Below are positions 5,091-23,302 of a stretch of 64,000 bases of DNA, piece after piece (position 1 is the first letter of the stretch; each line of letters begins with the position of its first letter). This stretch comes from Candidatus Micrarchaeota archaeon (lineage in GTDB: Archaea; Micrarchaeota; Micrarchaeia; Anstonellales; Bilamarchaeaceae). Made by a program: the position numbers and the translations under genes. A model generated the notes under the pieces. The model had not been told where the DNA came from. It saw only the letters and a program-made list of their open reading frames with translations, and ran no database searches. The DNA lies in contig JBDRCX010000006.1 in NCBI GenBank assembly GCA_043821365.1, forward strand, positions 544,001-608,000, given 5' to 3'.

Positions 5091-5270
5091 GCGACTTTTT
5101 AGGAAAAAGTCGCCCAAAAACTAGTTAAAAAAACTCATCCTTGAACAAAGTTCAAGGTGCAAATTGTTGCTCTGCAACAATTACGTGGCAAAAAACTAAT
5201 TTGCTATTTGGAAAAAAGGTAGCACCAAAAACTCATCATTAGTAAAATTGTGCCACAAAAAACTGATTTA
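5091..5270. repeat. Intergenic array of short perfect hairpins with A-rich linkers
   Basis: gcgacttttt-agg-aaaaagtcgc (5091-5113), ccttgaac-aaa-gttcaagg (5139-5157), aattgttgc-tct-gcaacaatt (5162-5182); linkers ccaaaaactagtt and caaaaaactaatttgcta. Confidence 0.85.
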
Positions 5271-5286
5271 TTATTTGGAATACCCA

Positions 5287-5685
5287 CTAATCGTCCATAC
5301 ATCTTTGATGTCCATTAGGGCATGTCATGCTAGTGTCATCATAGAATCCTTCATCATAATTAATGTCTATACTGGCTTCTTTTTCACAATAAAGTTTATT
5401 GCACTCGGGACAATAATAGTCAAGACCCATTTTCTGTATCCATTTTTCTCTTATTAATTTATGGATTTTCAGATAATTTTTTTCTTCAATCCATTTTTTT
5501 ACTTCTACAATATCCACTTCATTAATGGTTATTGATCTCAATGGACTATAAATTGTAAATTCATTTTCTCCAAATTTTATTAATACAATTTCCTGGCCAC
5601 AGCTATCACATTTTAGTCTGTAATCAGCTTCTATTTTTGCTAATTTTTTTCTATCCTGTGTTTCATCAAATGAAGTTACTCCCAT
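5287..5685 (-). CDS. Hypothetical Cys-motif (zinc-binding) protein
   Basis: CDSC and CPEC...C...CPNGH motifs; ATG at 5685 follows a GGTGG RBS. Confidence 0.75.
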   Translation of the reverse strand: MGVTSFDETQDRKKLAKIEADYRLKCDSCGQEIVLIKFGENEFTIYSPLRSITINEVDIVEVKKWIEEKNYLKIHKLIREKWIQKMGLDYYCPECNKLYCEKEASIDINYDEGFYDDTSMTCPNGHQRCMDD

Positions 5686-5695
5686 TATTCCACCT

Positions 5696-5959
5696 TTATT
5701 TGAATGAAAGATACCACCTTTCATATTCTTTATGAGTTGCAAAACACCTTAAGATAAAAAGTCGATCATCTTCAACTTGGTAGACCAAACGCGATTGTTT
5801 GGTCACATTTACTACGTTAAAAGGCAATCCATACCGCATATGACGGCGAGTTGGCATATTAACTATCTTTTCTATGTGTTTTTTAAAATATAATCTAAGT
5901 TGCGCATCCATCTTACTAAGTTCTTCTTCAGCTAATTCTGATATGCGCACTTCAATCAT
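5696..5959 (-). CDS. RelE/ParE-family toxin
   Basis: 87 aa, MIEVRISELAEEELSKMD...SRLVYQVEDDRLFILRCFATHKEYE; directly downstream of an RHH antitoxin. Confidence 0.75.
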   Translation of the reverse strand: MIEVRISELAEEELSKMDAQLRLYFKKHIEKIVNMPTRRHMRYGLPFNVVNVTKQSRLVYQVEDDRLFILRCFATHKEYERWYLSFK

Positions 5960-5963
5960 TTAA

Positions 5964-6200
5964 TCACATATGGTATTTTTTCTTTATCTCCTCAAAGCTT
6001 TTGGTTTTGATTTTACCAGATCTAATTTTTTCCATTTCAGATTCTATGCCTTTATTGACTAGATAAACCTCTTCCTCGCTTATGGCTCTGTCATATGCAA
6101 GTAATGCTTGACGAATCACCTCAGTCTGACTACCGGCATATCCTTTATTTATCAATTTTTTGATAATTATCTCGTATGGCTCTCCCAATATAATATTCAT
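5964..6200 (-). CDS. Ribbon-helix-helix antitoxin (CopG/ParD-like)
   Basis: IIKKLINKGYAGSQTEVIRQAL pattern and C-terminal SFEEIKKKY; upstream of the RelE-like gene. Confidence 0.75.
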   Translation of the reverse strand: MNIILGEPYEIIIKKLINKGYAGSQTEVIRQALLAYDRAISEEEVYLVNKGIESEMEKIRSGKIKTKSFEEIKKKYHM

Positions 6201-6262
6201 ATCCACACCATAAACATTCAATGCACATTAGAGTTTATAAAGGATGTGTATTCACTGGTCAT

Positions 6263-7567
6263 TCAATGATCATTAAATAAATAACTTCCACAAAATTTCA
6301 AAAATTCATTTAGTTTTTCTTTTGGTATTGATGCACCTGCAGCAATTTTATGCCCACCACCAATACCACTAATTTCTAGAGTAGCTTTTTTCATCAAATC
6401 TCCAAGATTTAATCCATTTTCAACTAAAATTTTCGATCCTCTTCCAGAAACTTTTACTGTGTTATTGTCTCCAAGTGCAATTCCAATTATTGGTGTTGAC
6501 CATTTTTGCTGAAATGCCATCCCACAAACAGTTCCTATTATGCCCTCATCAATTTTTCCTCTTCCATCAAGAAAATGAAATGCACCAAAATTCTGAATGT
6601 TACCATGTGCATATTCAATTCCGCTTCTAAGCATTCTTCTATGGTGTTGTAGTAGTGCCTTTGCTTCTGCATATGCATCATGATCTCCTAAACAAACCCG
6701 TACTCCTATGTCTGGTTGGGAATGTCTGCCACATGCATTCAAAATTGTACTGAATTCGTTTGCTTCATATGTTTCATCTTTTGGTCGATTTGGAAAAATG
6801 TAACTTTCACCAACAAGTTCATTTACTTTTTTCAACTGCCCATAGTTTATCAGAATTTTTGCAAGTGCACTTATCAAATTTTTCCTTTCATTATTATTTA
6901 GATCAACATATTTCTTCCCTTCATGTTCAATTTTAAGTTCATTCAAAAGTTCAATTGCCTTATCTTCTCTATATGAAATTCCAGGTATGTAGGGGTCATC
7001 ACAGTAAGATAAAAACTGCACTAATTGTCTGCAGTATCTCCCATAAAATCTTATATCTTCTTCAATTGTAATTTCGCCTTTCTTTTTTCCATCTTCCAAA
7101 ACCCACCTATTCATACCAGAAAGCGGAGATTGCATATCACCGACTGCTCCAACAACTGCAACATCTGCCATCTCTCTAAAAACACAATAGGCAGTGGTTG
7201 CTGCACTTAATTCTGTGCCACCATCTATACCATATAATACTGGGTTAATCTGGACTTTTTCTATGCCTTCTGTTTGGTGATGGTCAATAACAATGACATC
7301 TTTCAATTCATTCACTCTTTTATTCCCGCCTCCAAGATCTACAAAAATTATTTCTTGTTCTTGTGAATAGCGCTCGATGGCAGCATCATCTAGTTTTTTT
7401 ATTGCCTCTCTTCTGAATTTTTGATTATTTTTCAAAAATGCTTTTGCAACTATTGCACCTGAACTTAATCCATCTGCATCATAGTGGTGAACAATGATCG
7501 GATCTTTGAATGAAAGAGCCAGTTTTCTAGCTTCTTCACATTTTTCTAAAAATTCAGGATGTTCCAT
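6263..7567 (-). CDS. recJ: RecJ/GAN-like DHH-family exonuclease (DHH + DHHA1)
   Basis: Motifs HHYDADG, FVDLG, IDHH, AVVGAVGD and C-terminal GGGHKIAAGA. Confidence 0.85.
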   Translation of the reverse strand: MEHPEFLEKCEEARKLALSFKDPIIVHHYDADGLSSGAIVAKAFLKNNQKFRREAIKKLDDAAIERYSQEQEIIFVDLGGGNKRVNELKDVIVIDHHQTEGIEKVQINPVLYGIDGGTELSAATTAYCVFREMADVAVVGAVGDMQSPLSGMNRWVLEDGKKKGEITIEEDIRFYGRYCRQLVQFLSYCDDPYIPGISYREDKAIELLNELKIEHEGKKYVDLNNNERKNLISALAKILINYGQLKKVNELVGESYIFPNRPKDETYEANEFSTILNACGRHSQPDIGVRVCLGDHDAYAEAKALLQHHRRMLRSGIEYAHGNIQNFGAFHFLDGRGKIDEGIIGTVCGMAFQQKWSTPIIGIALGDNNTVKVSGRGSKILVENGLNLGDLMKKATLEISGIGGGHKIAAGASIPKEKLNEFLKFCGSYLFNDH

Positions 7568-7621
7568 ACCTACTTTCTTGCAAGTGTCTAATTTAAAATA
7601 AATTTCATTTATCATCCATCC

Positions 7622-8140
7622 ATGATCCAAAATATTTTGTTGAATTTGATATTGGCTATAGTGAAAGTTATTGCCGGAATAACGTTGTCTATAAATGCTG
7701 CCTACATGGGTATGTCTCTTCTTGACAAAATCACTGCATCAATAGATGAATGGAAAGAAATCAAAAAAGGAAATACTGCAGTTGGTATTCTTTATGCTGG
7801 TGCCATACTTTCGGTAATAATACTCGCAGAGCCTCAAATTTATGATTTTGTAAATGCAATACAACTTGATTTTGGAGCACAATATCTTTTGGGAAGTCTT
7901 GCATTTGGACTTGCCAACTACCTTGTTTCAGTTCTTCTAGGAATAATAGTAGTCTATCTTTCTATTCATGCAATTGATAGACTTTCAGGAGATCTTGAAG
8001 AACTCAAAGAACTAAAAAAGGGCAATGTTGCAATTGCAGTAATCATGGCAGTCATACTAGTTGCAATTGCATTTTCACTAAGAGCACCATTTGAATCAAT
8101 ATTTGAAACAATAAAGTCAATGGAGTCGTTAATTCTATGA
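7622..8140 (+). CDS. DUF350-like membrane protein
   Basis: Two repeats of (D/E)EWKEIKKGNxAV / EELKELKKGNVAIA between hydrophobic helices. Confidence 0.75.
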   Translation: MIQNILLNLILAIVKVIAGITLSINAAYMGMSLLDKITASIDEWKEIKKGNTAVGILYAGAILSVIILAEPQIYDFVNAIQLDFGAQYLLGSLAFGLANYLVSVLLGIIVVYLSIHAIDRLSGDLEELKELKKGNVAIAVIMAVILVAIAFSLRAPFESIFETIKSMESLIL

Positions 8141-9576
8141 AAATTCAAAAGTCAAATTTTTCTGAATGGTATAATACCATAATCAAAGAAGCACAACTTT
8201 GTGATCTGCGCTATGGCATCAAAGGCTTTGTAGTGTTCATGCCTTGGGCAGTCATGTCAATGAATAGAATGTATTCCATGTATGAAACTGCATTGGAATC
8301 CCGTGATCATGTGCCTGCTCTTTTTCCTGCACTAATTCCAGAACAATATTTTACTCGAGAAAGTGAACATGTGAAAGGTTTTATACCAGAAGTATTTTGG
8401 GTTACTGAAGCAGGCGGAAGTAAAACTGAAGAAAAGTATGCAATGCGACCAACTTCAGAAACTGCAATGTATACCATGTATGCTTTGTGGATTCATGGCA
8501 AAACTGATCTCCCACTAAAATTATATCAAAGATGTCAAGTCTGGAGACACGAAACCAAAGCAACCAAACCATTTATTCGTTCAAGAGAATTCCATTGGAT
8601 AGAAGCACACAATTGTTTTGCAACACGTGAAGAAGCAATGGCACAAGTTAGGGAAGATATGGGAGTTGCAGAAGAGGTTATTCATAATCAATTTGGTGTT
8701 CCATTTTTGTTTTTCAAAAGACCACAGTGGGACAAATTTGCAGGTGCTGAAGATACTTATGCAGCAGATACTTTGATGCCAGATGGCCGTGCGTTGCAGT
8801 TGCCATCAACACACATGCTTGGTCAGCATTTTTCAAAAGCATTTGGAATAAAATATGCAGATGAAAAAGGAATTGATCAGTATGTTTGGCAAACATGTTA
8901 TGGTCCGTGTATTTCGCGAATTTATGCTGCAGTAATTGCAACTCATGGTGATGATAAAGGACTTGTACTTCCAATTAGGTTAGCCCCTGTTCAAGTTGTA
9001 ATCATTCCAATTATCAAAGAAGGAACAAGTGAAGTTATAATGGCAAAATGTCATGAAGTGAAAAATAAAATTGAATGTTGTTTTGTTGTTAAAATTGATG
9101 ATTCTGAAAAAACACCTGGATTCAAATTTAATGAATGGGAAATGAAAGGAGTTCCATTGCGTATAGAAATTGGAATGCGTGATCTTGAATCAGAAAGTGT
9201 TGTTGTTGTGCGGAGAGATAGTGGTGAAAAACAATCTGTAAAAATAGAAGAACTTGAAGAAACTCTGCACAAACTTGCTGAATCTATGGAAATAAATCTG
9301 AGAGAAAAATCAGACAAATTCTTTTCTGATAAACTTTCATCTGCTGCAACATTGGAAGAGCTTGGTAAGAAATTAGAAAGTGGCCATGGTTTTGTTCGTG
9401 TGCCATTTTGTTCTGATCAAATGTCTGCAGAAAGCTGTGCTAACATTGTGAAAGATAAATGCCAGGCAAATGTCAGGGGATCACTTTTTGGTTCTGATGA
9501 AAAACCAGAAAAAGAAAAATGTCTTGGTTGCGGTGCCCCCGCAACAATTTATCTTTATGTTGCAAGACAATATTAA
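8137..9576 (+). CDS. proS: Proline--tRNA ligase (archaeal/eukaryotic type)
   Basis: FSEWYNTII, MRPTSET, TKPFIRSREFHWIE, QTCYGP; C-terminal Cys domain ending YVARQY. Confidence 0.97.
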   Translation: MKIQKSNFSEWYNTIIKEAQLCDLRYGIKGFVVFMPWAVMSMNRMYSMYETALESRDHVPALFPALIPEQYFTRESEHVKGFIPEVFWVTEAGGSKTEEKYAMRPTSETAMYTMYALWIHGKTDLPLKLYQRCQVWRHETKATKPFIRSREFHWIEAHNCFATREEAMAQVREDMGVAEEVIHNQFGVPFLFFKRPQWDKFAGAEDTYAADTLMPDGRALQLPSTHMLGQHFSKAFGIKYADEKGIDQYVWQTCYGPCISRIYAAVIATHGDDKGLVLPIRLAPVQVVIIPIIKEGTSEVIMAKCHEVKNKIECCFVVKIDDSEKTPGFKFNEWEMKGVPLRIEIGMRDLESESVVVVRRDSGEKQSVKIEELEETLHKLAESMEINLREKSDKFFSDKLSSAATLEELGKKLESGHGFVRVPFCSDQMSAESCANIVKDKCQANVRGSLFGSDEKPEKEKCLGCGAPATIYLYVARQY

Positions 9577-9594
9577 TTTTTTTATTTAAAAAAG

Positions 9595-9667
9595 TAGCCC
9601 CGAGCGGATTCGAACCGCTGTCAATGGATCCAAAGTCCACTATCCTTGACCGCTAGACGACGGGGCT
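9595..9667 (-). tRNA. tRNA-Gln (anticodon UUG), intronless
   Basis: Reverse complement AGCCCCGTCGTCTAGCGGTCAAGGATAGTGGACTTTGGATCCATTGACAGCGGTTCGAATCCGCTCGGGGCTA folds into a cloverleaf with an A1-U72 pair typical of archaeal tRNA-Gln. Confidence 0.96.
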
Positions 9668-9733
9668 AGTTAAATCTTAATCGCTTTGTTATGCAAAATG
9701 ATTATTACAAAGCACAGAACAGATTTTAATTGA

Positions 9734-10152
9734 TATAGGCTCGAGAAATCCGCAGCAGTAACCGCAGAAGAACATGGCAAAGGAGTTTCTGATGCAGGAT
9801 GGAAAATATTCACGAATATCCTAAGCTACAAAGCGGCAGAAGCTGGTTGTGAAGTAATATTTGTGAATCCAAAAAATACGTCTAAAGTTTGCAACAGGTG
9901 TGGTTCATCTGTGCCAAAGAGGCTATGGGAAAGACAACATATTTGTCCTTCATGTGGTTTGAGCATGGATAGAGACCTCAATGCTGCGATAAATATACTC
10001 GAAAAAGCTACTGTTGGAATGGCAGGAAGTAACGCTTGTGTTGGAGAGCAACGCTCTTCGACAGCTAAAGGTTCAAAGCCTTTAGATGGAGATGTTTCAA
10101 AAGAAACGTCAATGAAGCAGGAAGCTCACATCCCTAGATGTGGGTAGTTCAC
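9734..10152 (+). mobile_element. tnpB: Truncated IS200/IS605-family remnant: tnpB 3' part plus right end
   Basis: Frame open from 9734: SDAGWKIF..LSYKA..VNPKNTSKVCNRCG..CPSCG..DRDLNAAINI (Zn finger and RuvC-III). Right-end hairpin cacatc-ccta-gatgtg followed by gtagttcac ending at 10152. The 5' part of tnpB is missing. Confidence 0.9.
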
Positions 10153-10157
10153 GAAGA

Positions 10158-10165
10158 TTATAAAA
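10158..10165 (+). promoter_or_regulatory. TATA box of tRNA-Val
   Basis: TTATAAAA about 30 nt upstream of the mature tRNA 5' end at 10193. Confidence 0.6.
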
Positions 10166-10192
10166 AGCCTTTCACAATCATAAGAAACACAT

Positions 10193-10433
10193 GGGCTCGT
10201 AGTCGAATGGTTATGACGTCCGCCTCACAGAAACTTTTTGGAAAAAAGTTTCACAAAAACCCGTTCAAAAAGTTTTGGGAGCGCGGAAGATTCGCGGTTC
10301 GATCGTTCTTTTTTAGTAAAACATTCGTGAACGTATTGCGTTCACGGTGCCCCATAAAAACGAATTCTCGTTTTTATAGGGAAGAACCAAAAAACTAGTT
10401 CCTAAAAAGCGCACGAAAATCCGCGCGGGCCCA
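10193..10433 (+). tRNA. tRNA-Val (anticodon CAC) with two introns: 10230-10281 (37/38) and about 10304-10419 (T-loop, 59/60)
   Basis: Exons join to GGGCTCGTAGTCGAATGGTTATGACGTCCGCCTCACACGCGGAAGATTCGCGGTTCGATTCCGCGCGGGCCCA. Intron 1 forms a full bulge-helix-bulge (CUCA/UGGG centre; aaactttttg/caaaaagttt outer helix). Intron 2 has a UUCG/CGAA central helix. Confidence 0.92.
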
Positions 10434-10567
10434 TTTTTTCATTTTAGTTTAAGTAATACTCAGGATAAAATGGAAGCTAAGTGAAATCTCAATTTCACAA
10501 TTTTTGCTAATATAAGATTCTTGTGGAGCAGGAGAATGTTTTAATTTCTTAACTTTGTTGTGCTATT

Positions 10568-11590
10568 ATGGCAAAAGCTAAAAAGAAAAAACATTTATCA
10601 AAAAAACATACAAAAAAATCTCCAAAAGTAAAACATAAAAAATCTCATAAAACTGTCAAAAAATCAAAACACACTATAAAAAAGAAAAAACAACACAAAA
10701 CAAAAAAATCAATTAAGAAACCAAAAAAAATTGTTATAAAACCAATTAAATTCAAAAAATCAAAACAACCAACTGAAATTGTAATGCAGCCTATTGTATT
10801 GAAAGTAGTGTTGCCAAAAGAAATTTGCGATAGTTATCAAGAATTCGTTCCTAATCTAAGTAAATTGCCTCCATGGGAAAGCAGGCAGGCATTGAAAAAT
10901 TTTATTTTTAGTAAGAATCTAAAATTCTATTGCGTAAGTCGTGCATCGCCTGATTTCCAAACTGTGATGGGATTTTTTAACGAGTCTCCATATCAAGATG
11001 TTTCTGGACATTTTGTTATTTGTGTAAAAAGTTCAAGCAAAATTGTTGGTGCTTTGGATGGTTACATTGTTGATAATGTTCTTGTTCTTGGGAATAGTTA
11101 TGTAAAATCAGATAAAAGGATTTTACATTTGCTTTTGTATGCTGCTGCATTGACAAGAAGAGAATCAAATTATGTCGTATGTTCAACAAGAGTTGACAAA
11201 CCTTCTATTGATTTTGTTGGTATGCTTAATCTTCTCGGCAGAGGATTTGGGATGTATGCTGTCCCCTATCTTAAATCAACTTTTGTTTTTGTCAGAAGAA
11301 TAAAAAAAGAAGGTCCTGTTACCAATGGGCAGGAAATTGCACATATCCTACGATCATTAAGACTTTCTGGGGATCATGAAATCCGTTCTGCAGTTTTTGA
11401 ATTTAACAAAAGAAGTCTTGTTTCTTTGATACCTTTGCCAATGTCATTAGATAGAAAGGAAAATCTCTATGAACTAAAAGACAGCGGATCTTCACTTGGC
11501 TTTTCTACTGAGTCTTTAGATAGGTTGATTGGGTTGCTTAAACAATCAAAACTCAGTTACAAAGATCTAACTCCCGAGACTCTTTTCTAA
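10568..11590 (+). CDS. Hypothetical protein with Lys/His-rich N-terminal tail
   Basis: First ~66 aa are roughly half Lys, followed by a globular alpha/beta region. Confidence 0.8.
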   Translation: MAKAKKKKHLSKKHTKKSPKVKHKKSHKTVKKSKHTIKKKKQHKTKKSIKKPKKIVIKPIKFKKSKQPTEIVMQPIVLKVVLPKEICDSYQEFVPNLSKLPPWESRQALKNFIFSKNLKFYCVSRASPDFQTVMGFFNESPYQDVSGHFVICVKSSSKIVGALDGYIVDNVLVLGNSYVKSDKRILHLLLYAAALTRRESNYVVCSTRVDKPSIDFVGMLNLLGRGFGMYAVPYLKSTFVFVRRIKKEGPVTNGQEIAHILRSLRLSGDHEIRSAVFEFNKRSLVSLIPLPMSLDRKENLYELKDSGSSLGFSTESLDRLIGLLKQSKLSYKDLTPETLF

Positions 11591-11632
11591 AAAACAAATA
11601 GTTAATTAATATCTTCCTAACCTCTTACATTT

Positions 11633-12493
11633 ATGTTTCGAATTGTTTTTCTTGGAACTTCTGCCAGTGCTCCAACTGTAGAAAGGGGCATGCCTTCAAT
11701 TGCAATAAAATATGAAAGCGAACTTATTCTTTGGGATTGTGGTGAGGGAACACAAAGACAGCTTATGAAATACAAAGTTGGCTATGGGAGCATTGACCAT
11801 ATTATGATCTCCCATCCGCATCTTGATCATTATCTTGGTTTATTTGGTTTATTGGAAACATTGAGATTATCTTCTCCGGCTCCCCGTCCAGTTAATTTAT
11901 TTGTTCCAAAACAACTTGATCTTCAAGATTATAAATTTGCAAAACTTTCAAAATTAAAAAATGGATTAATATATCGCGGAAAAAATTTTACAATAAGTGC
12001 ATTTCCAGTCAAGCATACTAAAAATTCATTTGGTTTAGTTTTCCAAGAAGATGATAAAATAAAATTTCACGAGGAAAAAGCACATTCATTGGGAGTTCAT
12101 GGAAAATTATTCAAAGAAATTCAGAAGAAAGGAAAAATCAAAACTGACAAAGGCGAAATAAAATTACAAGACATTACATGGAAAAATCCAGGGAAGAAAA
12201 TTGTTTACAGTGGCGATTGTTCATTCGATGATAATGTTCTTGAAGCAGCACGTGGTGCAGATATTCTAATTCACGAGGCAACATTTGATTCGTCGAAAAA
12301 ACAAGAAGCAACAGAAAGATCTCATAGCACTGCAGAGGATGCAGCAATGGTTGCAAAGAAAGCAAAAGTAAAACAACTAATTCTGACTCACATCAGTCCT
12401 AGGTATTCTAATAGTAATATATTACTAGAGCAGGCAAAGGCAATATTTGAAAATACGACGGTAGCCAAGGATGGATTTACTGTGGATTTGTAA
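11633..12493 (+). CDS. rnz: Ribonuclease Z
   Basis: FLGTSASAPTVERG, DCGEGTQ, HPHLDH metallo-beta-lactamase motif, HEATF, LTHISPRY. Confidence 0.95.
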   Translation: MFRIVFLGTSASAPTVERGMPSIAIKYESELILWDCGEGTQRQLMKYKVGYGSIDHIMISHPHLDHYLGLFGLLETLRLSSPAPRPVNLFVPKQLDLQDYKFAKLSKLKNGLIYRGKNFTISAFPVKHTKNSFGLVFQEDDKIKFHEEKAHSLGVHGKLFKEIQKKGKIKTDKGEIKLQDITWKNPGKKIVYSGDCSFDDNVLEAARGADILIHEATFDSSKKQEATERSHSTAEDAAMVAKKAKVKQLILTHISPRYSNSNILLEQAKAIFENTTVAKDGFTVDL

Positions 12494-12542
12494 TTTTACT
12501 TCAACTCATCTATTTTTATATTATATTCATTTAATTGAATTC

Positions 12543-13106
12543 ATGTTCAAAAAATTGAATTTGTTTTCAAAAACTGAAATTAAACTCCTTTCTTTTATCT
12601 CATTCCAGGACAGGGAATTATATGAACGTGAAATTGCAATTGGGGCAAAGATAAGTGTTGGGTCGGTAAATTCAATTCTAAAAAAATTAAGTTCTCTAGG
12701 TCTTGTGATCAAATCAAAAAAAGGGAAAATGCTTTTTTACAGGAGGAATGATTCAAACCCAGTTTTACGTCAATTCAAAATTTTTGTAAATGTGTCGCTC
12801 TTATTTCCGTTGGTAAAAAAATTAGTACCAATATCAAAGAGAATAGTGCTTTTCGGCAGCTGTGCAGAAGGTAGGAATGGTGAAACCAGCGATATTGATC
12901 TATTTATTCTTACTTCTGAAAAAGACAGGGTGAAAAAAATACTTAGAACATATAATGAAATTCAAGGGATAGTTATGAATTCAGTTGAATATTCAAATTT
13001 ACGAGATAAAGATAGGGTTTTTTATGATAATATAAACAAAGGAATAGAATTGGGGGATGAAATATGGATGAGCGATTTAGGAGATGTATCGAAGAAAGGA
13101 AGTTAG
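12543..13106 (+). CDS. Minimal nucleotidyltransferase (MNT) with N-terminal winged HTH
   Basis: LFGSCAEG..SDIDLFIL motif; N-terminal YEREIA..ISVGSVNSILKKL helix-turn-helix. Confidence 0.85.
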   Translation: MFKKLNLFSKTEIKLLSFISFQDRELYEREIAIGAKISVGSVNSILKKLSSLGLVIKSKKGKMLFYRRNDSNPVLRQFKIFVNVSLLFPLVKKLVPISKRIVLFGSCAEGRNGETSDIDLFILTSEKDRVKKILRTYNEIQGIVMNSVEYSNLRDKDRVFYDNINKGIELGDEIWMSDLGDVSKKGS

Positions 13107-13480
13107 TAAAAATTAGAATTGAAAAGGAACTAGTTGTTAAGGAACTTAAAGCAGCCGAAGAGGATTTGATCAGTGCAGAAAATTCCATCAGGAAAGGGGA
13201 TTACAAATGGGCCACTATTCAATCCTATTATTCCATGTTCCATACTGCACGTTCTCTTGTTCTTAGTCGTGGTTATCGTGAAAAAAGCCATCTTTGTTTA
13301 TCAGTTGCCTTGAGAAATCTTTTTGCAAACAGGTTGGAAGAAAAATATTTTAACAATCTGAGGGACTGCATGGCACTTCGAGAAGATGCTGATTATGGTT
13401 TAATTTATTCAGAGCTCTCGTCTAAACAGGCGTTGACATGGGCAAGGGATTTTATCCATGTAGCTCGCCTTTTAATATAA
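13064..13480 (+). CDS. HEPN domain protein (MNT-HEPN toxin-antitoxin partner)
   Basis: WATIQSYYSMFHTARSL..REKSH..LREDADY; follows the MNT gene. Confidence 0.88.
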   Translation: MDERFRRCIEERKLVKIRIEKELVVKELKAAEEDLISAENSIRKGDYKWATIQSYYSMFHTARSLVLSRGYREKSHLCLSVALRNLFANRLEEKYFNNLRDCMALREDADYGLIYSELSSKQALTWARDFIHVARLLI

Positions 13481-13579
13481 TAGTAATAATATACTCTCGA
13501 CATCATCACTATCTATAAACCCCGTAAACGTACGGGAGACGTATGTATACTGCGTCTATTGTCTAAATTAAAACTGCAG

Positions 13580-13784
13580 TTTATAAACTGGAGTTTATGT
13601 TTGAGGCCAATGTTTATAAAGATTTTGAAAGACAGTCTCTCAAAGAGATAGGGTAGCCCCTATCCTGGAACTCAGGGGAGAATCTCTTCTGAGCTTTGTG
13701 GGCCGCGCAGGGAAAAAAAACACCGCCGTTAATTGTTTTAGGCGGCCCTATAGTTGGGCGGTGAAAAAAAATTGAGGTGAAAAA
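13580..13784 (+). promoter_or_regulatory. Tandem TATA boxes and long structured 5' leader of the S-layer gene
   Basis: TTTATAAA at 13580 and 13613; GC-rich stems gataggg/ccctatc and caccgcc/ggcggtg; GAGGTGA RBS. Confidence 0.55.
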
Positions 13785-16667: not shown

Positions 16668-16705
16668 TTTGACTTTTTTTATTTTTTCTTTTTATTTTAT
16701 TTATC
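16668..16705 (+). terminator. Oligo-T terminator after the S-layer gene
   Basis: Several T runs immediately after the stop codon. Confidence 0.55.
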
Positions 16706-16800
16706 TACTTCTAGATGAAAAAATAGATCTTGTTGTTCATAATTTGTAGTGGCGAATTAAAATCAAAAAGCTTAAATAATCGTAGGCACTACATATTAAC

Positions 16801-17718
16801 ATGGTTTTTATAAGAAAAAAGAGTAAGAGTAACACCTACTACTATGAACTTGTTGAGAATAAGCGTATTGGTGGAAAAGTAGTTCAAAAAGTTCTTGAAT
16901 ATTTTCCTACAATTACAGATGCTACAGAATATGCAAAAAAACATGGGCTCAAATTACCAAAAGATGATGGGGAATGGATAAATGAACATCTAAGAAAGTC
17001 CTTGAATGAAAAGTTTGCTAAATTAAATTCTATAAGGCCTCTTCCAAAGAATGTTCTTGAAAGATTACGTGATAAATTTGAAGTAGATATGACATACAAT
17101 TCAAATGCTATAGAAGGGAATCGTCTTACTCTCAGAGAAACTTGGATGGTTTTAAGAAAAGGAATAACAGTACGTGGTAAATCTATGAAAGAGCATTTGG
17201 AGGCTACAAATCATGCTGAAGCAATAGAGTTGTTGGAAAATTTAGCAAATTCAAAAAATGAAATCAAAGAATCAGATGTTCTAAGTATACATGCGATAAT
17301 ACTCGACAAAATCGATTCACAGAATGCTGGATTCTATCGCCATGAACAAGTGTATATAGAAGGTTCCACAGTCCAACTTGCAAAATGGAAAGAAGTACCT
17401 CGTCTAATGCAGGAAGTTTACAAAGAACTGAATAATTTAGATAAGGGCATATCTGCTATCTATTCTGCGGTAAAAATCCATCATAAAACTGTCAAAATAC
17501 ATCCTTTTGTGGATGGTAATGGGCGACTAGCACGTCTTCTTATGAATTTAAGGCTTATACGTGCAGGTTTTCCACCAACAATACTAAGAAAAGAAGAAAG
17601 ACGATCATATTACTCTGCTTTGGAAAAAGCAGACTCTGGAGACTTTAGGTCTTTGTCTATGTTGATTGCAAATGACGTTCGAAAAGCACTTGATTTGTAT
17701 ACAGAAGCTGTGGAATAA
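16801..17718 (+). CDS. Fic-family protein (adenylyltransferase)
   Basis: Canonical HPFVDGNGRLAR motif; TYNSNAIEGNRLTLRET. Confidence 0.93.
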   Translation: MVFIRKKSKSNTYYYELVENKRIGGKVVQKVLEYFPTITDATEYAKKHGLKLPKDDGEWINEHLRKSLNEKFAKLNSIRPLPKNVLERLRDKFEVDMTYNSNAIEGNRLTLRETWMVLRKGITVRGKSMKEHLEATNHAEAIELLENLANSKNEIKESDVLSIHAIILDKIDSQNAGFYRHEQVYIEGSTVQLAKWKEVPRLMQEVYKELNNLDKGISAIYSAVKIHHKTVKIHPFVDGNGRLARLLMNLRLIRAGFPPTILRKEERRSYYSALEKADSGDFRSLSMLIANDVRKALDLYTEAVE

Positions 17719-17796
17719 GTCATTGTATAATACACATCAAAATCCACTCTCTAGCGAACTGTAATCCTTTATATTTTTTCTCTTAGTATCACTCAC

Positions 17797-18576
17797 ATGG
17801 CAGCTCCAACCGTAGAACACAAAATCATCCCCCCAGGAAAGAAACTTCCTCAGAATGTAGAAATCCTTGCTGGAAAAGTAAAATCAATTACACTTGTTCT
17901 TCCGTTGTTAAATGAAAAAAACGCATACTTAGTAATAAAACTTCCCGAATCAGTTCTAAAAGATGTTTTAGAGCATGCAGCAAAACTTCCAGAAGCACAA
18001 AGAACACAATTTGTTCAAGATTGGCTTATGAAAAACCAAGACGTTGCGTTGCAACAATATATCAAAAGCAAAGCAAAAGTATTCACTCTTGATGTTGTAC
18101 CAGTTAGAGTTGCAGAACCAAGTAGGTTGGGTACAATTCATCTTGAAAAAGCACCACACCGAATTGGTCTTGAAAGAGGAGAGACAAGAATTCTATCAGG
18201 TTCAGGTACAACTGGAGACCCCTACCAAGCAACAATCGCAGTTTCTCCTTTTGTTAGATTGGAGGGAGTTGGTAAAAAAGCAGTTAAGCTACCCTTAATA
18301 ATTGATTTGGAATCATTTGGACAATTTCACTTTAAAATTACATTAAAATTAGGGCAGTTAGCTGAAGACAATATTTCAGTAACAAGTGGCAGTATTTCGT
18401 TCTTATTACGACAACAAATAACTAAATTAGCTTCAACGCAATTTGATACTGAAACAAGGGATTTTAGGGAAGCACTTCGTGATGCAATGTCAAATATTGC
18501 ACCGAATTTGCGTGAACAAGTCAAAAGGATGAAAGTCAAACACCCAGAATGGACTGATTGTCTAGAAGGAAATTAA
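17797..18576 (+). CDS. Hypothetical protein (259 aa)
   Basis: Long ORF with typical composition; no family recognised. Confidence 0.7.
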   Translation: MAAPTVEHKIIPPGKKLPQNVEILAGKVKSITLVLPLLNEKNAYLVIKLPESVLKDVLEHAAKLPEAQRTQFVQDWLMKNQDVALQQYIKSKAKVFTLDVVPVRVAEPSRLGTIHLEKAPHRIGLERGETRILSGSGTTGDPYQATIAVSPFVRLEGVGKKAVKLPLIIDLESFGQFHFKITLKLGQLAEDNISVTSGSISFLLRQQITKLASTQFDTETRDFREALRDAMSNIAPNLREQVKRMKVKHPEWTDCLEGN

Positions 18577-18611
18577 CAACAGTTTTAAATCTGCACAAGC
18601 TTATCACTTCT

Positions 18612-19283
18612 ATGGGTAATTGTTCTAGATGCGGCCGCAGCGGAGAGATAGAATATGGTTCTGACGGTCTATCCTATTGTTCTGCATGCATATTCTATGG
18701 TCTAAATAAACCATGCTGGAGATGCCGTATGTATCTTCCTGCTTCTGAACTTCAACAATACAAAGGCCAGTTCACCTGCCCATATTGTATAATGGATATG
18801 CGTGATGAAGATAGAAGGATAGAACAATCAGTAACAAAAAAGCCAAAAGTAGAAATACTAGCATATAATGAAAGATGCGAAAGATGCGGACGTGATCTTG
18901 AAGCAAGAGTTTACATTGTAAATGGAAAAAAACTCTGTAAAAGTTGCGTTGATGCAGAAAAAAACACCTGGGAATTAGTAAGTGGTTCTCCTATGGGTGC
19001 AGGACAAAAAATATCAGTAAAACCAATAATACAAAAGAAAAAAATGGGTCTTCTATCTGCCTTTATCTCTGAAGCATTATATGCACTAAAACTGAAGAGG
19101 AAACCAGTAGAGGAAATAGTTGTTTATGATACAAAAATGCCAATACAGTATGCAAAACCAATGACAGAAAAACCAATGCAAAAAGATGAAAAGAAACCAG
19201 AGACAGAAGGACTTATGGTAATAAAGCCAGAAGTCAAAAAAGCCAAGAAAAGAAGAAAAAAGAAGAAAGGTCAGAACAAATAA
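18612..19283 (+). CDS. Multi-CxxC zinc-finger protein with basic C-terminus
   Basis: Six CxxC motifs: CSRC, CSAC, CWRC, CPYC, CERC, CKSC. Confidence 0.8.
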   Translation: MGNCSRCGRSGEIEYGSDGLSYCSACIFYGLNKPCWRCRMYLPASELQQYKGQFTCPYCIMDMRDEDRRIEQSVTKKPKVEILAYNERCERCGRDLEARVYIVNGKKLCKSCVDAEKNTWELVSGSPMGAGQKISVKPIIQKKKMGLLSAFISEALYALKLKRKPVEEIVVYDTKMPIQYAKPMTEKPMQKDEKKPETEGLMVIKPEVKKAKKRRKKKKGQNK

Positions 19284-19317
19284 AAACCCAACGTCATATT
19301 TTATCCTAGCGGGTTTA

Positions 19318-19833
19318 ATGGTACTTAATTATTCTGAACTTAGAGATATTCAAAAGCGCGAGATGGATTCATCAGCAATAGTTAAGTTGCCAGAAGATTT
19401 CTACCAGGAAGTTTCAAAACTTCTTGCAAAAAAAAATTCTGATGCCGTATCGTCAAAATTGCTTCTTGCAATAAAAGAATACGAGAATATAAAGAAAATC
19501 ATTGTTTCAATATCTAGTAAACGAGAAGAAAAGATAGTTTTAATGGCAGTTAGGGGGGAAAGAGAAGGTCTTGGCCTTACTTTAGAGGAAAGGGAAATGT
19601 TAAAAGAGCTATCCTCAATAATTAAGAAAGCAAGGTCCAAAACTCAGTCTGTATGGGCTGCAGAGGATCCCAAAGCAGGCAATTCAAGAAAAGTAAAAGT
19701 GCTGAAAGATATCTCTCAGTATCGTGGTCTTGATAATGAGATATATGGTCCGTTTAAGGAAGGTGAAGAAAAATCCCTTCCGAAAGCTGAGGCAGAATGG
19801 TTATTAAAAGCTGGAATGGCTGAAATTCTATAG
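19318..19833 (+). CDS. DNA replication factor GINS (Gins51-type)
   Basis: KLPEDFY motif, C-terminal B domain GLDNEIYGPFKEG..AEWLLKAG; conserved position before L44e. Confidence 0.85.
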   Translation: MVLNYSELRDIQKREMDSSAIVKLPEDFYQEVSKLLAKKNSDAVSSKLLLAIKEYENIKKIIVSISSKREEKIVLMAVRGEREGLGLTLEEREMLKELSSIIKKARSKTQSVWAAEDPKAGNSRKVKVLKDISQYRGLDNEIYGPFKEGEEKSLPKAEAEWLLKAGMAEIL

Positions 19834-19891
19834 GTGTAAAAATGCAATGCATTTTTACTTAATAAATGTAATTTTTACAGGGTGATTAAGA

Positions 19892-20170
19892 ATGAAATTT
19901 CCAAAGGAAATAAATGCATATTGTCCTTATTGCAAATCTCACAAAGTGCATAAGGTTAAGGCTGCAAGTAAAGGCAGAGCCAGAACAATGGCAAAGGGAA
20001 ACAGAGCACACAACAGAAGCCTTATGGGGCACGGCAGTAAAAGAGCTGGTGAAAAAACAGTGAGAAAGCAAGGAAAAAAGCAAAAATTAGCATTACAATG
20101 CAGTGCATGCAAGAAAAAACAAGAAAGAATTGTTGGTGGAAGAACAACAAAGAAAATCGAATTCAAGTGA
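19892..20170 (+). CDS. rpl44e: 50S ribosomal protein L44e
   Basis: MKFPKEINAYCPYC..LQCSAC. Confidence 0.95.
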   Translation: MKFPKEINAYCPYCKSHKVHKVKAASKGRARTMAKGNRAHNRSLMGHGSKRAGEKTVRKQGKKQKLALQCSACKKKQERIVGGRTTKKIEFK

Positions 20171-20186
20171 TTATGAGGTTATATTT

Positions 20187-20354
20187 ATGGCTGGCAAATA
20201 TTTGAAAGTAAAATGTAAATGTGGAAATGAGCAAGTTGTTTTTAGTCATACTACTTCGGTGGTAAACTGCAGCGGATGCAAAGAACCGTTGGCACACCCA
20301 TCTGGAGGAACAGCAGTTATCCATGGGGAAGTTTTGGGTGATTTAGATAGTTGA
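20187..20354 (+). CDS. rps27e: 30S ribosomal protein S27e
   Basis: YLKVKCKCGNEQVVFSH..VNCSGC..PSGG. Confidence 0.95.
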   Translation: MAGKYLKVKCKCGNEQVVFSHTTSVVNCSGCKEPLAHPSGGTAVIHGEVLGDLDS

Positions 20355-21093
20355 ACTCCCAGAAGAAGATGAATTAGTTCTTGCAACTATTAAAAAAATC
20401 CAGCCCTATGGTGCATTTTGTACTCTTACTGAATATAATAATATAGATGCATTCTTGCATGTTTCAGAAGTTGCACCTCGTTGGATAAAAAATATCCATG
20501 AATTTATCTCTGAAGGCCAAAGATATGTGGTTAAAGTTCACCATGTTGACAAGGAGAAAAATCAAGTTGATATATCCATAAAAAGAGTGAGTGAAGAAGA
20601 AAAGAAACAAAAACTCGAATTAGTCCAAAACGAAAAAAGAGGTTCAAAACTTCTTGAGATTGCAATCAAAGCAACAAAAACAACAATTGATCTGCCAACT
20701 GCTAAAAAAGAAATTGAAAATTATTTTGATGATGTTTATGCCTGCTTTAAGGAAGTCAATGCCGATGGCGAAGATGTATTAAAAAAATTAGATCTTCCAA
20801 AACCACTTAAAACAAAAATATTTGAAATAGCAAAAAAGAACATAAAGAAGCCAGTTGTAACTGTGGATGCAATAATGACCATTGTCTGTTATTCTCAAAA
20901 CGGTGTTGAAACAATACAAAATGCATTGAAAGTTGATGGTGCCGATATTCACTATCTTGGTGCTCCAAAATACAAAATCTCGTTGACTGCTCCTGATTAC
21001 AAATCTGGAGAGAAAAAACTTCTCAGTATGTTGGAACATATAAAAACCTACGCTCAGAAGAATAATTGTGATTTTAAAGTCCACAGGGATTAG
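20347..21093 (+). CDS. eif2a: Translation initiation factor 2 alpha subunit (apparent non-AUG start at ATA 20347)
   Basis: S1 domain ELPEEDELVLATIKKIQPYGAFCTL..FLHVSEVAPRWIKNI begins just after an in-frame TAG (20344-20346); C-terminal YLGAPKY. Confidence 0.9.
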   Translation: MVELPEEDELVLATIKKIQPYGAFCTLTEYNNIDAFLHVSEVAPRWIKNIHEFISEGQRYVVKVHHVDKEKNQVDISIKRVSEEEKKQKLELVQNEKRGSKLLEIAIKATKTTIDLPTAKKEIENYFDDVYACFKEVNADGEDVLKKLDLPKPLKTKIFEIAKKNIKKPVVTVDAIMTIVCYSQNGVETIQNALKVDGADIHYLGAPKYKISLTAPDYKSGEKKLLSMLEHIKTYAQKNNCDFKVHRD

Positions 21094-21113
21094 TGCGACT
21101 GGAGCTGGTTTTA

Positions 21114-21263
21114 TTGTTTAAGATGAGATTTTGTAAAGTTTGCGAAAGTTATACTCTAACTAACGAACATTGTAGTCTTCAGACGTTATCAGCTCACCCT
21201 GCGAATTTTAATCCAAATGATCCCTATGGAACTTATCGCAGAAAAGTAAAATTTGGTGCTTAA
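21114..21263 (+). CDS. nop10: Nop10 (H/ACA RNP), absent from ORF track
   Basis: LFKMRFCKVCESYTLTNEHC..SAHPANFNPNDPYGTYRRK; conserved position after aIF2alpha. Confidence 0.9.
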   Translation: MFKMRFCKVCESYTLTNEHCSLQTLSAHPANFNPNDPYGTYRRKVKFGA

Positions 21264-21264
21264 T

Positions 21265-22029
21265 ATGGAAAAAACAACTATTATCGAAAAAGTCCAAGTG
21301 AAGAAACTTCGTAAAGCAGTACTTATAACCGGACTTCCTGGCATTGGACTCATTGGTCAAGTTGTTGGAAGATATCTTGTTGATGAGCTAAAAGCAAAAA
21401 GAATTGCAAACTTATATTCACCACATTTTCCCCATCAGGTTTTCATGACCAAAAGAGGTGGAATGAGACTAATAAAAAACAGTTTCTATTTTCACAAAGG
21501 CAAAAAAAGAGACATACTGATTCTGGTGGGAGATATTCAGGCCATGAGTTCAGTTGGTCAGTATGAAGTTGCAAGCAGAACACTTGATTACTGCCAGAAA
21601 ATAGGGGTTACTGAAATTCTTACTGTTGGTGGTTATAGCACTGGTAAAATCTCAGAAAATAGGAAGATTTTCTGTGTAGCAACATCAGATGGTTTAAGGG
21701 AACGATTGAAAAAATTCCATGTTATCTTTGGAGAAGCAAGAGGCTCAATTGTTGGTGCAGCAGGGCTTTTACCTTCATTGTGTAAATTCAGAGGTATGGA
21801 AGGAGCCTGTGTCATGGGCGAAACCCATGGTGGCTATATAGATACTGCTTCAGCAAGACAAATAACAATAATGCTTTCCAAATATCTTGATATCAAACTT
21901 AATTTGAAAAAGCTTGATGAAAGGGCAGCAGAAAGCCAGAAGGTCTTGAAAAAAGTACAGGACGAAGTTCAGAAAACAATGGAAGCCCAAAATGAAGCTT
22001 TGAACAGAAATGTCACATACATAAGATAA
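21265..22029 (+). CDS. PAC2-family proteasome assembly chaperone
   Basis: LITGLPGIGLIGQ..GSIVGAAGLL..MGETHG; conserved neighbour of Nop10. Confidence 0.88.
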   Translation: MEKTTIIEKVQVKKLRKAVLITGLPGIGLIGQVVGRYLVDELKAKRIANLYSPHFPHQVFMTKRGGMRLIKNSFYFHKGKKRDILILVGDIQAMSSVGQYEVASRTLDYCQKIGVTEILTVGGYSTGKISENRKIFCVATSDGLRERLKKFHVIFGEARGSIVGAAGLLPSLCKFRGMEGACVMGETHGGYIDTASARQITIMLSKYLDIKLNLKKLDERAAESQKVLKKVQDEVQKTMEAQNEALNRNVTYIR

Positions 22030-22064
22030 TTAAATTTTCCTCCATTATTATTTTGGGGGATGAT

Positions 22065-22436
22065 ATGCGTGGGCAAATCAGTCTAGAATATCTTTTCATA
22101 TCTGTTATTTCTCTTTGTTTGATCTCAATATCTCTATTTTCCTTAATGGCAATCAGAGATTTTTCTATGAAGGCCATAGAGATCCTAACGTTCAAATTTT
22201 CTGTCTCAACACTTAGCAATATGATTGGTGAAGTATGTGTTATGGGAAACGGAAATTCACAATATCTTTATTTGAATAATCTGTCTGTTGAATCAGTAAA
22301 AGATGATTTTTGGATAGTGAGATTTAGTTCTGGCAACATGTCTATTGTGAAAAAAGCACTCTGCCAAGTAGAAGGAAAAGCAAATGGAGAAACACAAATT
22401 AAGAATGAAAATGGAATAATTATCCTATCAAACTAA
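22065..22436 (+). CDS. Class III signal-peptide (type IV pilin-like) protein
   Basis: MRG|QISLEY followed by a hydrophobic stretch. Confidence 0.8.
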   Translation: MRGQISLEYLFISVISLCLISISLFSLMAIRDFSMKAIEILTFKFSVSTLSNMIGEVCVMGNGNSQYLYLNNLSVESVKDDFWIVRFSSGNMSIVKKALCQVEGKANGETQIKNENGIIILSN

Positions 22437-22462
22437 ATAACAAAGGAGATTCAAAAAGATGG

Positions 22463-22509
22463 CAAGAACGTTGCGACGTTCTTGACTGTCTTGAAATAGG
22501 AATTTCAAG
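22463..22509. repeat. Pair of perfect hairpins between convergent genes
   Basis: caagaacgt-tgcg-acgttcttg and cttgaaat-agga-atttcaag. Confidence 0.75.
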
Positions 22510-22527
22510 TACAACCGTAGGTTCTTT

Positions 22528-22845
22528 TTATATTACAGTAAGCTTTCCAAATTTTCCTAATGTTAATTGGGCAGCTCCTTGCCATTCATTTACATAACCA
22601 TTTTCTATCTTTATCTTGTCTCCAGTTTTTACAGAATCTATCTGTTCATTCCATAGAACAAGAGTAACAGTTCCACTGTCATCCTTTATTGTTGCATTTC
22701 CAACTCTTAATTTTCTCCCGTATTTGTTAATTTCGCGTTCACTGTCCATAGAGACAACTTCGGCTTCGATATTAACACTGCCAGTTCCTGCCTTCAAATC
22801 TTTAATCTTCATACCACTACCTTCAGTTTCTTTCTTTTTTGCCAT
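22528..22845 (-). CDS. ssb: Single-OB-fold ssDNA-binding protein
   Basis: MKIKDLK..VNIEAEVV..VGNATIKDDSGTVTLVLW..KIENGYVNEWQG. Confidence 0.85.
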   Translation of the reverse strand: MAKKKETEGSGMKIKDLKAGTGSVNIEAEVVSMDSEREINKYGRKLRVGNATIKDDSGTVTLVLWNEQIDSVKTGDKIKIENGYVNEWQGAAQLTLGKFGKLTVI

Positions 22846-22909
22846 TTTAATACTCTCCTTTTTTTGTTTGATGTGTGGGTCTAAGGGGGCGTGCCCCTTA
22901 AATAAACAA

Positions 22910-23157
22910 AGCCTCCGGAGGGGATTGAACCCCCGACTTCCTCCTTTCCCGCTTTTCGTAAAAGCGGGACCAAAACTAATTTGCTAATTTTTGCCCAAGG
23001 CAAAAATGGTAAACCAAAAAACCCTGGAGGGTTTTTAAACAATCAGTTTTGATCCAACTTTTTCTAAAAGTTGGTTACAAGAGAGGCGCTCTACCGTTGC
23101 ACGCCTTGCGGACAAATCTTTTACAGATCGCCGTGCAAGACTCTGAGCTACAGAGGC
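22910..23157 (-). tRNA. tRNA-Thr (anticodon UGU) with a 130-nt intron at 37/38 (22946-23075) and a 46-nt D-loop insert (23097-23142)
   Basis: Exons join to GCCTCTGTAGCTCAG|CGGTAGAGCGCCTCTCTTGTA|AGGAGGAAGTCGGGGGTTCAATCCCCTCCGGAGGCT. CUUG/CGGG central helix and AAA bulge at the anticodon intron. Confidence 0.88.
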
Positions 23158-23302
23158 ATGTGCTCAACATATAGCCGATGACATACAGGCCAGATTCATC
23201 TGGTGCGGACATATTAGAAGCACTAATATGTTATCTACTCCATTCGACAGTTTTGGTATTTGACTGATAAAGTTTAAATAACAACTTCCTAAACCATCAT
23301 GT

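Follow-up and report, generated by a model that had tools for sequence, protein, structure and literature searches.

Among the described systems closest to the one reported here is that of Candidatus Micrarchaeum acidiphilum ARMAN-2, which has multi-intron tRNA genes and an epsilon2 splicing endonuclease (Fujishima et al. 2011, PMC3239211; PDB 4FZ2), an enzyme type that cuts relaxed motifs (PMC3239211). In the Thermoproteales, related introns occur across tRNA types and positions within the lineage, implying a spread limited by spliceability, as 2010 work is recounted in PMC4033280 and bioRxiv 10.64898/2026.10.13.758758; transposition of these introns has been inferred from similarity only. 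A 2026 census of Asgard archaea did not reveal any general route by which introns arrive (bioRxiv 10.64898/2026.10.13.758758), and the way in which archaea acquire their tRNA introns is an open question. Here, we analysed a 64,000-nt stretch of DNA (the window; G000:C6:544001-608000) from a Candidatus Micrarchaeota genome, G000, assembled to 1.2 Mb in 6 contigs (36% GC, 87% complete), in which a short module made of a palindromic hairpin and a constant linker recurs in tRNA genes and spacers. We propose that these modules, termed class A, form the ends of endonuclease-spliced introns, which belong to a multi-copy family specific to the genus and are of the archaeal bulge-helix-bulge (BHB) or bulge-helix-loop (BHL) type, a reading to which we assign a probability of roughly 60%. 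The features of the window are collected in Table 1.

The original prediction for this DNA had described one dispersed family of short hairpin arrays with constant linkers and variable stems in tRNA introns, at a tnpB 3' end and in intergenic spacers. A whole-genome scan for perfect hairpins (stem of at least 8 bp, loop of 3-6 nt) found 390 of them versus about 134 (122-152) in Markov shuffles, a roughly 3-fold enrichment; 18 fall within 5091-23231, where about 2 are expected, and the genome holds 68 clusters of two or more hairpins. Hairpins with one mismatch stay near background (132 versus 112) and their mismatches are no more often G-T (21) than A-C (22); the hairpins are strict DNA palindromes without G-T tolerance. 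Class A has the form X(3-6)-C-T4-6-nnn-A4-6-G-X', followed by an [n](C)CAAAA(A)C linker, and hairpin plus linker are present in 55 copies in the genome compared to 2-8 in second-order Markov shuffles. The outer stems vary between copies, the constant parts being the T/A core and the linker. Linker recurrences quoted in the prediction are exact (ccaaaaactagtt at 5114 versus ccaaaaaactagtt at 10387; caaaaaactaatttgcta at 5189 versus caaaactaatttgcta at 22971), and its tandem hairpins are perfect stems at the places it listed, except for 10040-10085. Dispersal of palindromic modules over tRNA introns and spacers, their excess over shuffled background and their presence or absence between relatives were all borne out. 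The supposed single family turned out to be a composite of at least three things: class A; a separate double-hairpin element of ~100 nt (the pair at 22463-22509), which has no CCAAAAC-type linker and represents another repeat; and the stems at 10040-10085, inside or beside a truncated tnpB, which had been given as 8-10 bp, measure only 5 bp and 7 bp (7-nt loop), have no linker and do not belong to the hairpin family. The class A pattern occurs in 20 of 24 genomes of the same genus (family Bilamarchaeaceae), the four without a match being G004, G007, G016 and G020; elsewhere in the order, other families show it just sporadically, and a reversed-pattern control gave about zero matches.

In tRNA genes, the class A hairpin stands directly at the splice site with its linker pointing inward. 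Twelve inverted module pairs, enclosing 71-137 nt, were found in G000, with more in its relatives. Where a case can be called, excising precisely the stretch from one hairpin to the other mostly leaves a tRNA recognised by ARAGORN, with junctions in D-, anticodon- and T-loops. In this respect the inserts behave like archaeal endonuclease-spliced (BHB/BHL) introns, whose excision gives back the mature RNA. Many tRNA types carry the family at these three loop positions, and its long form was found in at least a dozen tRNA types, over ten genomes. In the window, taking out 10230-10281 and ~10304-10420 gives a tRNA-Val(cac) of 73-77 nt (ARAGORN). Intron 1 of this gene starts with the class A hairpin GAAACTTTTT-gga-AAAAAGTTTC and linker ACAAAAAC, followed by CAAAAAGTTT-TGGG-AG; read from the sequence, it offers a BHB motif with central helix CUCA/UGGG and bulges CA|G and AG|C, while the 5' arm of the hairpin pairs with the distal AAAAAGUUU as an outer helix. 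Intron 1 is kept in eight tRNA-Val orthologs, in which changes of the stem stay paired (GAAAC/GTTTC, GAAGC/GCTTC, CAAAC/GTTTG). Across these orthologs, the hairpin 5' arm, the local 3' arm and a distal copy near the anticodon complement change together (GAAAC/GTTTC/GTTT versus GAAGC/GCTTC/GCTT), suggesting that two alternative pairings are both maintained. In intron 2, again read from the sequence, UUCG of the T-loop pairs with CGAA at the intron 3' end in a 4-bp central helix with 3-nt bulges on both sides, and the class A hairpin follows right after the 5' bulge; BHB motifs are also drawable for introns in tRNA-Ile and tRNA-Ala. G000 codes for a 393-aa splicing endonuclease that matches the ARMAN-2 epsilon2 enzyme over its full length (PDB 4FZ2, E 3.5e-132) and should, as an epsilon2-type enzyme, be able to cut relaxed motifs. 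The public records closest to G000 are metagenome-assembled genomes of Micrarchaeota; in the best of them, Ca. Bilamarchaeum dharawalense LFW-283_2, this protein is 91% identical at the amino-acid level. In addition, a 171-aa open frame at G000:C6:480614-480853 holds another splicing-endonuclease homolog. Standard finders report only 23-27 tRNA genes in G000 and overlook tRNA-Val and tRNA-Thr of the window; the intron system explains why such tools leave about half of these genomes' tRNA genes undetected.

The tRNA-Thr(UGU) gene carries the long form of the intron, with two inverted modules in its anticodon loop. In RNA sense, this 128-nt intron runs from a hairpin beginning with CCAAC through linker AUCAAAAC, UGAUUGUU and hairpin AAAAACCC.. 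to hairpin AUUUUUGCC.., UAGCAAAUUA, GUUUUGG and a last hairpin beginning with UCCCGC, and it is predicted to fold into a four-way junction, in which the anticodon stem is joined by a hairpin, the CCAAAAC/GUUUUGG helix and another hairpin. We aligned 24 copies in RNA sense and compared their interior helices with 500 shuffles and with slid controls. The helices covary: 94.4% are paired versus 87.3% in shuffles and 37-60% in slid controls, and 36 double-change cells stand against 9.3 in shuffles, with 0 of 500 shuffles reaching that value. In helix UGUU/UAGC, 18 of the 24 copies retain a U-G pair, which exists only in RNA sense. The interior polarity relative to transcription is identical in all resolved hosts, and it is the same in a tRNA-trailer copy (C6:717451) and in the array at the left of the window read on the mRNA strand. 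With this constant polarity, the sense linker in tRNA-Val and the antisense linker in tRNA-Thr lose the meaning that they had been given as a sign of DNA-level insertion; they differ because one belongs to the 5'-end and the other to the 3'-end module of an intron whose two ends are inverted. Across the genus, the anticodon-loop intron of tRNA-Thr has been kept, its stems altered yet still perfect. Three other proposals for the module were considered. Kissing or duplex pairing of the two terminal hairpin cores was rejected, the loops being mostly not complementary; a canonical BHB formed by exon and hairpin-arm pairing in double-module introns works in some orthologs only; and only about half of the linkers read NCCA, which a tRNA-minihelix mimic (hairpin plus NCCA) for RNase P or RNase Z would present.

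How might such introns work? The long ones have two inverted modules, whose linkers would pair (CCAAAAC/GUUUUGG) and thereby close a core of two further hairpins. To the epsilon2 endonuclease with its broad specificity, the terminal hairpin would present an intron-side helix adjacent to the bulge of the splice site, and it might also keep the intron folded on itself. In this view, species gain and lose whole introns, small two-hairpin cassettes insert at a fixed point of the hairpin 3' arm, and modules in spacers, where the T-rich strand is mostly the transcribed one, may act as terminators. Several observations weigh against the interpretation as spliced introns. Double-module introns offer no consistent canonical BHB and fold into a four-way junction, which to our knowledge is not a documented endonuclease substrate. 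Can an epsilon2 endonuclease cut a four-way junction with hairpins at both splice sites? A CUUG/CGGG central helix is possible in tRNA-Thr(UGU) and lost in several Thr(CGU) orthologs. Some introns, such as the one in the tRNA-Thr D-loop, have no module, and the module is thus not required for splicing. Strictly Watson-Crick hairpins are atypical of RNA-selected helices. Finally, loop composition tracks module polarity as in DNA terminal inverted repeats: on the strand with the linker downstream, loops are purine-rich (G82 A59 T28 C8), so that loops of 5' modules are purine-rich and those of 3' modules pyrimidine-rich.

Perfect palindromes without G-T pairs and polarity-tracking loops would suit a DNA-level transposon resembling a miniature inverted-repeat transposable element (MITE) or a REPIN (a hairpin-forming pair of repetitive extragenic palindromic, REP, sequences), in which the modules are terminal inverted repeats for some transposase or recombinase, introns and spacers are survival sites and splicing is incidental. 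The inverted-repeat geometry fits as well, as do copies in spacers outside RNA genes and at the edge of a 1.17-kb insertion; like MITEs, the elements have terminal inverted repeats and are polymorphic at orthologous sites, filled in some genomes and empty in others. Target-site duplication gives a divided picture. In the 23S rRNA gene (G000:C4:16866-16920), a class A module lies within a 52-nt insertion relative to the Rfam model, bordered by a direct repeat of ~11 nt (GGGCCCATGAAA/GGGTCCATGATA), whereas comparison with eight orthologs lacking the intron revealed no target duplication at tRNA-Val intron 2; the boundary of the tRNA-Thr insertion leaves an ambiguity of 0-2 nt. A candidate enzyme is also missing. 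The original prediction had pointed to HUH transposases of the IS200/IS605 or REP-associated tyrosine transposase (RAYT) kind, a driver that we rejected: Y1 transposases, found in 8 of 40 genus genomes, do not correlate with module load, being absent from the five module-richest of 25 genomes tallied (G011, G019, G022, G006, G024) and present in one genome without modules, and the single IS200-type Y1 gene of G000 is flanked by unrelated GC-rich hairpins. Membership in the REP/REPIN group was dismissed, as no RAYT flanked by the repeats co-occurs and the palindromes are not conserved between copies; nor do the modules look like a miniature element derived from IS200/IS605, their ends being unlike those of the resident IS200/IS605 and the stems of the tnpB remnant short and unrelated. 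No reverse transcriptase was detected in the 87% complete assembly of G000 and no module pair brackets an open reading frame (ORF) in it, the relatives not having been searched for an autonomous partner. In addition, copy-and-paste does not explain stems that differ between copies, the interior points the same way with respect to transcription in every host resolved, and one interior helix uses U-G pairs valid only in RNA sense. Taken together, we consider a DNA-level transposon rather unlikely.

The reading as a family of spliced introns leaves the question whether they move. Intron 2 of tRNA-Val occurs in G000 only among nine orthologs; the eight others lack it and have an intact T-arm (ggttcgat[ct]ccgcgcgggccca), and it is a lineage-specific gain. 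Three species have an empty D-loop site in tRNA-Thr, where others carry introns of at least five different kinds. A further layer is formed by a 60-nt cassette, which splits the 3' arm of the intron-2 hairpin just past its A-run. A 91% identical copy sits at the equivalent hairpin site of a tRNA-Pro-like intron in G015:C43, and in the G000 ortholog of that intron (C6:368921) the hairpin is uninterrupted; similar nested cassettes are present at C6:642640, 678483, 321296 and 464801 and at C3:58407. Among intron-borne elements, only these inner two-hairpin cassettes behave as passengers, as far as the comparison goes. The earlier picture of elements landing in introns is not supported: the modules themselves are intron ends, given that hairpin-to-hairpin deletion restores the tRNA. 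Alternatively, nothing has moved, and the modules are structural parts of old introns and flanks that were passed on vertically, serve to insulate folding or to signal processing and are maintained by selection, similar introns having arisen by tRNA gene duplication. Intron conservation, which had been named as a check on the prediction, gives this idea some footing, since intron 1 of tRNA-Val and the intron in the tRNA-Thr anticodon loop persist throughout the genus with stem changes staying paired; near-identical introns also occur in paralogous tRNAs, e.g. on C45 and C69 of G046. It is nevertheless very unlikely, because the same family sits in D-, anticodon- and T-loops of unrelated tRNAs, tRNA-Val intron 2 and the tRNA-Thr D-loop introns are not conserved, and a 91% identical cassette is found in different tRNAs of different species; the empty sites point towards repeated independent gains. 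Anatomy, statistics, distribution, covariation and filled versus empty sites were observed directly, and the comparison of these genomes supports mobility of introns and cassettes. Tentatively, one may go a step further and regard the intron as the archaeal counterpart of an introner, a mobile cassette, complete in itself and spliceable, with inverted hairpin-linker ends that supply helices for the epsilon2 endonuclease; it could enter D-, anticodon- and T-loops of any tRNA, rRNA and other stable RNAs and would nevertheless be spliced out. If this were true, the archaeal introner would come with smaller two-hairpin cassettes, whose insertion would be specific for a site four to five pairs away from the loop of the hairpin, and its fixed polarity without target duplication, transposase or reverse transcriptase would hint at a possibly RNA-guided or splicing-enzyme-dependent insertion.

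Class A modules are also found outside introns. The array at the left of the window lies between two minus-strand ORFs and, read on the mRNA strand, is a succession of half-modules of the 3' type (UAGCAA-nnnn-GUUUUUUG ...) in which five T5-T7 tracts occur. Its first 31 nt, hairpin plus linker, recur identically in a tRNA intron at G000:C6:414562 (100% over query 60-91), and an 84% copy of its two-hairpin cassette lies inside an interrupted class A hairpin at G000:C6:464801-464868. The array has no tRNA, C/D-box, H/ACA or other Rfam match, and no complete counterpart of it was found in 39 genus genomes; a hidden tRNA was rejected, there being no exon-like flanks and no Rfam match. The whole ~1.17-kb segment that begins with the array is missing from the orthologous spacer in G015:C40 and G024:C11, in which 'cttgtcgtat' runs straight into a DHH-family gene. 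Three small minus-strand ORFs lie on this insertion (5287-6221), coding for 151 aa without a family, 87 aa (ParE_toxin) and 85 aa (ParD_antitoxin), the latter two matches being weak and all below the Pfam cut-off. Elsewhere in G000, class A modules adjoin matches to signal recognition particle RNA and RNase P RNA. A complete double-module element at G000:C6:717451-717581 directly follows the 3' end of a tRNA, with the AGGAGG-ATG of the neighbouring gene close behind it, and is thus a trailer and not an intron. Some 900 nt downstream of the 23S module there is a weak group I intron match (E 3.4e-4, below the gathering score). That the free-standing copies (5091-5286, the C6:696872 trailer and others) are just terminators or 3'-end signals made of T-runs and hairpins, alike through composition, is very unlikely, for although the GTTTTTGG strand is the transcribed one in ~7 of 9 spacers between same-direction ORFs (tallied from the ORF table), the window array has its five T-runs on the mRNA strand and a T7 hairpin begins right after the tRNA 3' end at C6:696872, the 31-nt identity between array and tRNA intron and an extended linker including TTGCTA common to both settings speak against it, and modules within tRNA genes would terminate the tRNA transcripts.

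The other repeats of the window are of different kinds. The double-hairpin element near its tRNA-Thr gene sits between convergent pilin-like and SSB-like genes; the same spacer is empty in G015, G046 and G024, and copies are present at other loci in G015 (two), G024 and G003. The tnpB remnant, consisting of the C-terminal zinc-ribbon part only, stops 46 nt upstream of tRNA-Val, and together with tRNA-Gln(UUG) the three genes lie within 600 nt of each other (window 9594-10147). A further palindrome family comprises GTAAAAATGn-nnnn-nCATTTTTAC (GTAAAAATGn..CATTTTTAC) and ATAAAAAT-nnnn-ATTTTTAT, often as a pair; its members abut GAGGTG ribosome-binding sites and have repeated ACCTC/GAGGT on their flanks. 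Sites of this family are window 19836-19858 and 38418-42 as well as G000:C6:457568, 720393 and 786413. Finally, two to four hairpins in a row, set apart by 5-6 nt (e.g. acagt or attcgc), form arrays that end 4-7 nt before tRNA mature 5' ends at G000:C6:327188-327300, 368805-368880 and 768343-768392.

Table 1 Features of the window, in window coordinates; stem and loop lengths are given for perfect hairpins
Feature	Position	Strand	Details
Class A module	5091..5121	+	left edge of insertion and array; GCGACTTTTT-agg-AAAAAGTCGC, linker CCAAAAAC
Free-standing array	5091..5286	-	one perfect module, two-hairpin cassette, 3-4 degenerate modules
Segment of ~1.17 kb	5091..6262		holds array, 151-aa ORF, weak ParE/ParD-like pair
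Two-hairpin cassette	5139..5182		CCTTGAAC-aaa-GTTCAAGG, AATTGTTGC-tct-GCAACAATT
Truncated tnpB	9863..10147	+	Cas12f1-like TNB domain (Pfam)
tRNA-Val(CAC) gene	10193..10433	+	two introns; ARAGORN after insert removal, orthologs
tRNA-Val intron 1	10230..10281	+	canonical 37/38; sequence read directly, 8 orthologs
tRNA-Val intron 2	10304..10420	+	T-loop 59-61; hairpin GTTC-T6-agt-A4...A-GAAC, linker CAAAAAAC, 3' end ...CGAAAAT
Nested 60-nt two-hairpin cassette	10322..10381	+	CGTGAACG..CGTTCACG, ATAAAAACGA..TCGTTTTTAT
Separate double-hairpin element, ~100 nt	22436..22534		hairpins 22463-22484 and 22490-22509; flanks AAAAAGGAG...CTCCTTTTT-like
tRNA-Thr(UGU) gene	22910..23157	-	D-loop intron ~23097-23139 (no class A module) and long anticodon-loop intron
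Double-module anticodon-loop intron, 128 nt	22947..23074	-	one of at least 24 family copies, with covarying interior helices
Perfect hairpin	5091-5113		stem 10 bp, loop 3 nt
Perfect hairpin	5139-5157		stem 8 bp, loop 3 nt
Perfect hairpin	5162-5182		stem 9 bp, loop 3 nt
Perfect hairpin	10230-10252		stem 10 bp, loop 3 nt
Perfect hairpin	10326-10346		stem 8 bp, loop 5 nt
Perfect hairpin	10354-10377		stem 10 bp, loop 4 nt
Perfect hairpin	22463-22484		stem 9 bp, loop 4 nt
Perfect hairpin	22490-22509		stem 8 bp, loop 4 nt
Perfect hairpin	22947-22969		stem 10 bp, loop 3 nt
Perfect hairpin	22987-23007		stem 9 bp, loop 3 nt
Perfect hairpin	23017-23036		stem 8 bp, loop 4 nt
Perfect hairpin	23054-23074		stem 9 bp, loop 3 nt

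Our literature searches found no description of the hairpin-linker module, and the comparison with known systems therefore concerns its parts. REP/REPIN-RAYT systems and IS200/IS605 elements likewise have short palindromes, often in inverted pairs, and many dispersed copies; class A differs in that no HUH gene co-occurs, its stems are variable, its palindromes perfect and its copies in RNA genes placed exactly at splice sites. Eukaryotic introner elements, which are MITE-like and create spliceosomal introns (PMC12130899), belong to another splicing system, and here no target duplication, transposase or DNA-level transposition was shown; the likeness, by analogy only, is that of a repeated element with inverted ends whose insertion is a removable intron. 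The Thermoproteales belong to another phylum with another enzyme type, and the present genus has, unlike them, inverted terminal hairpin-linker modules, perfect palindromes, nested insertions, copies in spacers and rRNA, and visible empty orthologous sites. ARMAN-2 is of the same phylum, its enzyme has a full-length homolog here, and its introns, which have relaxed as well as strict BHB motifs, occupy both canonical and non-canonical positions, the T-loop 59/60 region among them. The text of PMC3239211 does not contain the word 'hairpin' and describes no shared end module, inverted pairs, nested cassettes or non-tRNA copies, whereas introns of the present genus reach 98-145 nt with four hairpins. 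For the question how archaeal tRNA introns arrive, the genus offers a concrete handle that is lacking in the Thermoproteales and Asgard cases: ends that can be recognised by their module, copies by the dozen in a 1.2-Mb genome and ~40 related genomes with filled and empty sites, down to a cassette placed at one fixed point of a hairpin arm, make the route of arrival approachable both experimentally and computationally. Measured against these systems, class A is real and genus-wide, a system of the proliferating archaeal intron kind that combines features of DNA palindromes with nested cassettes.

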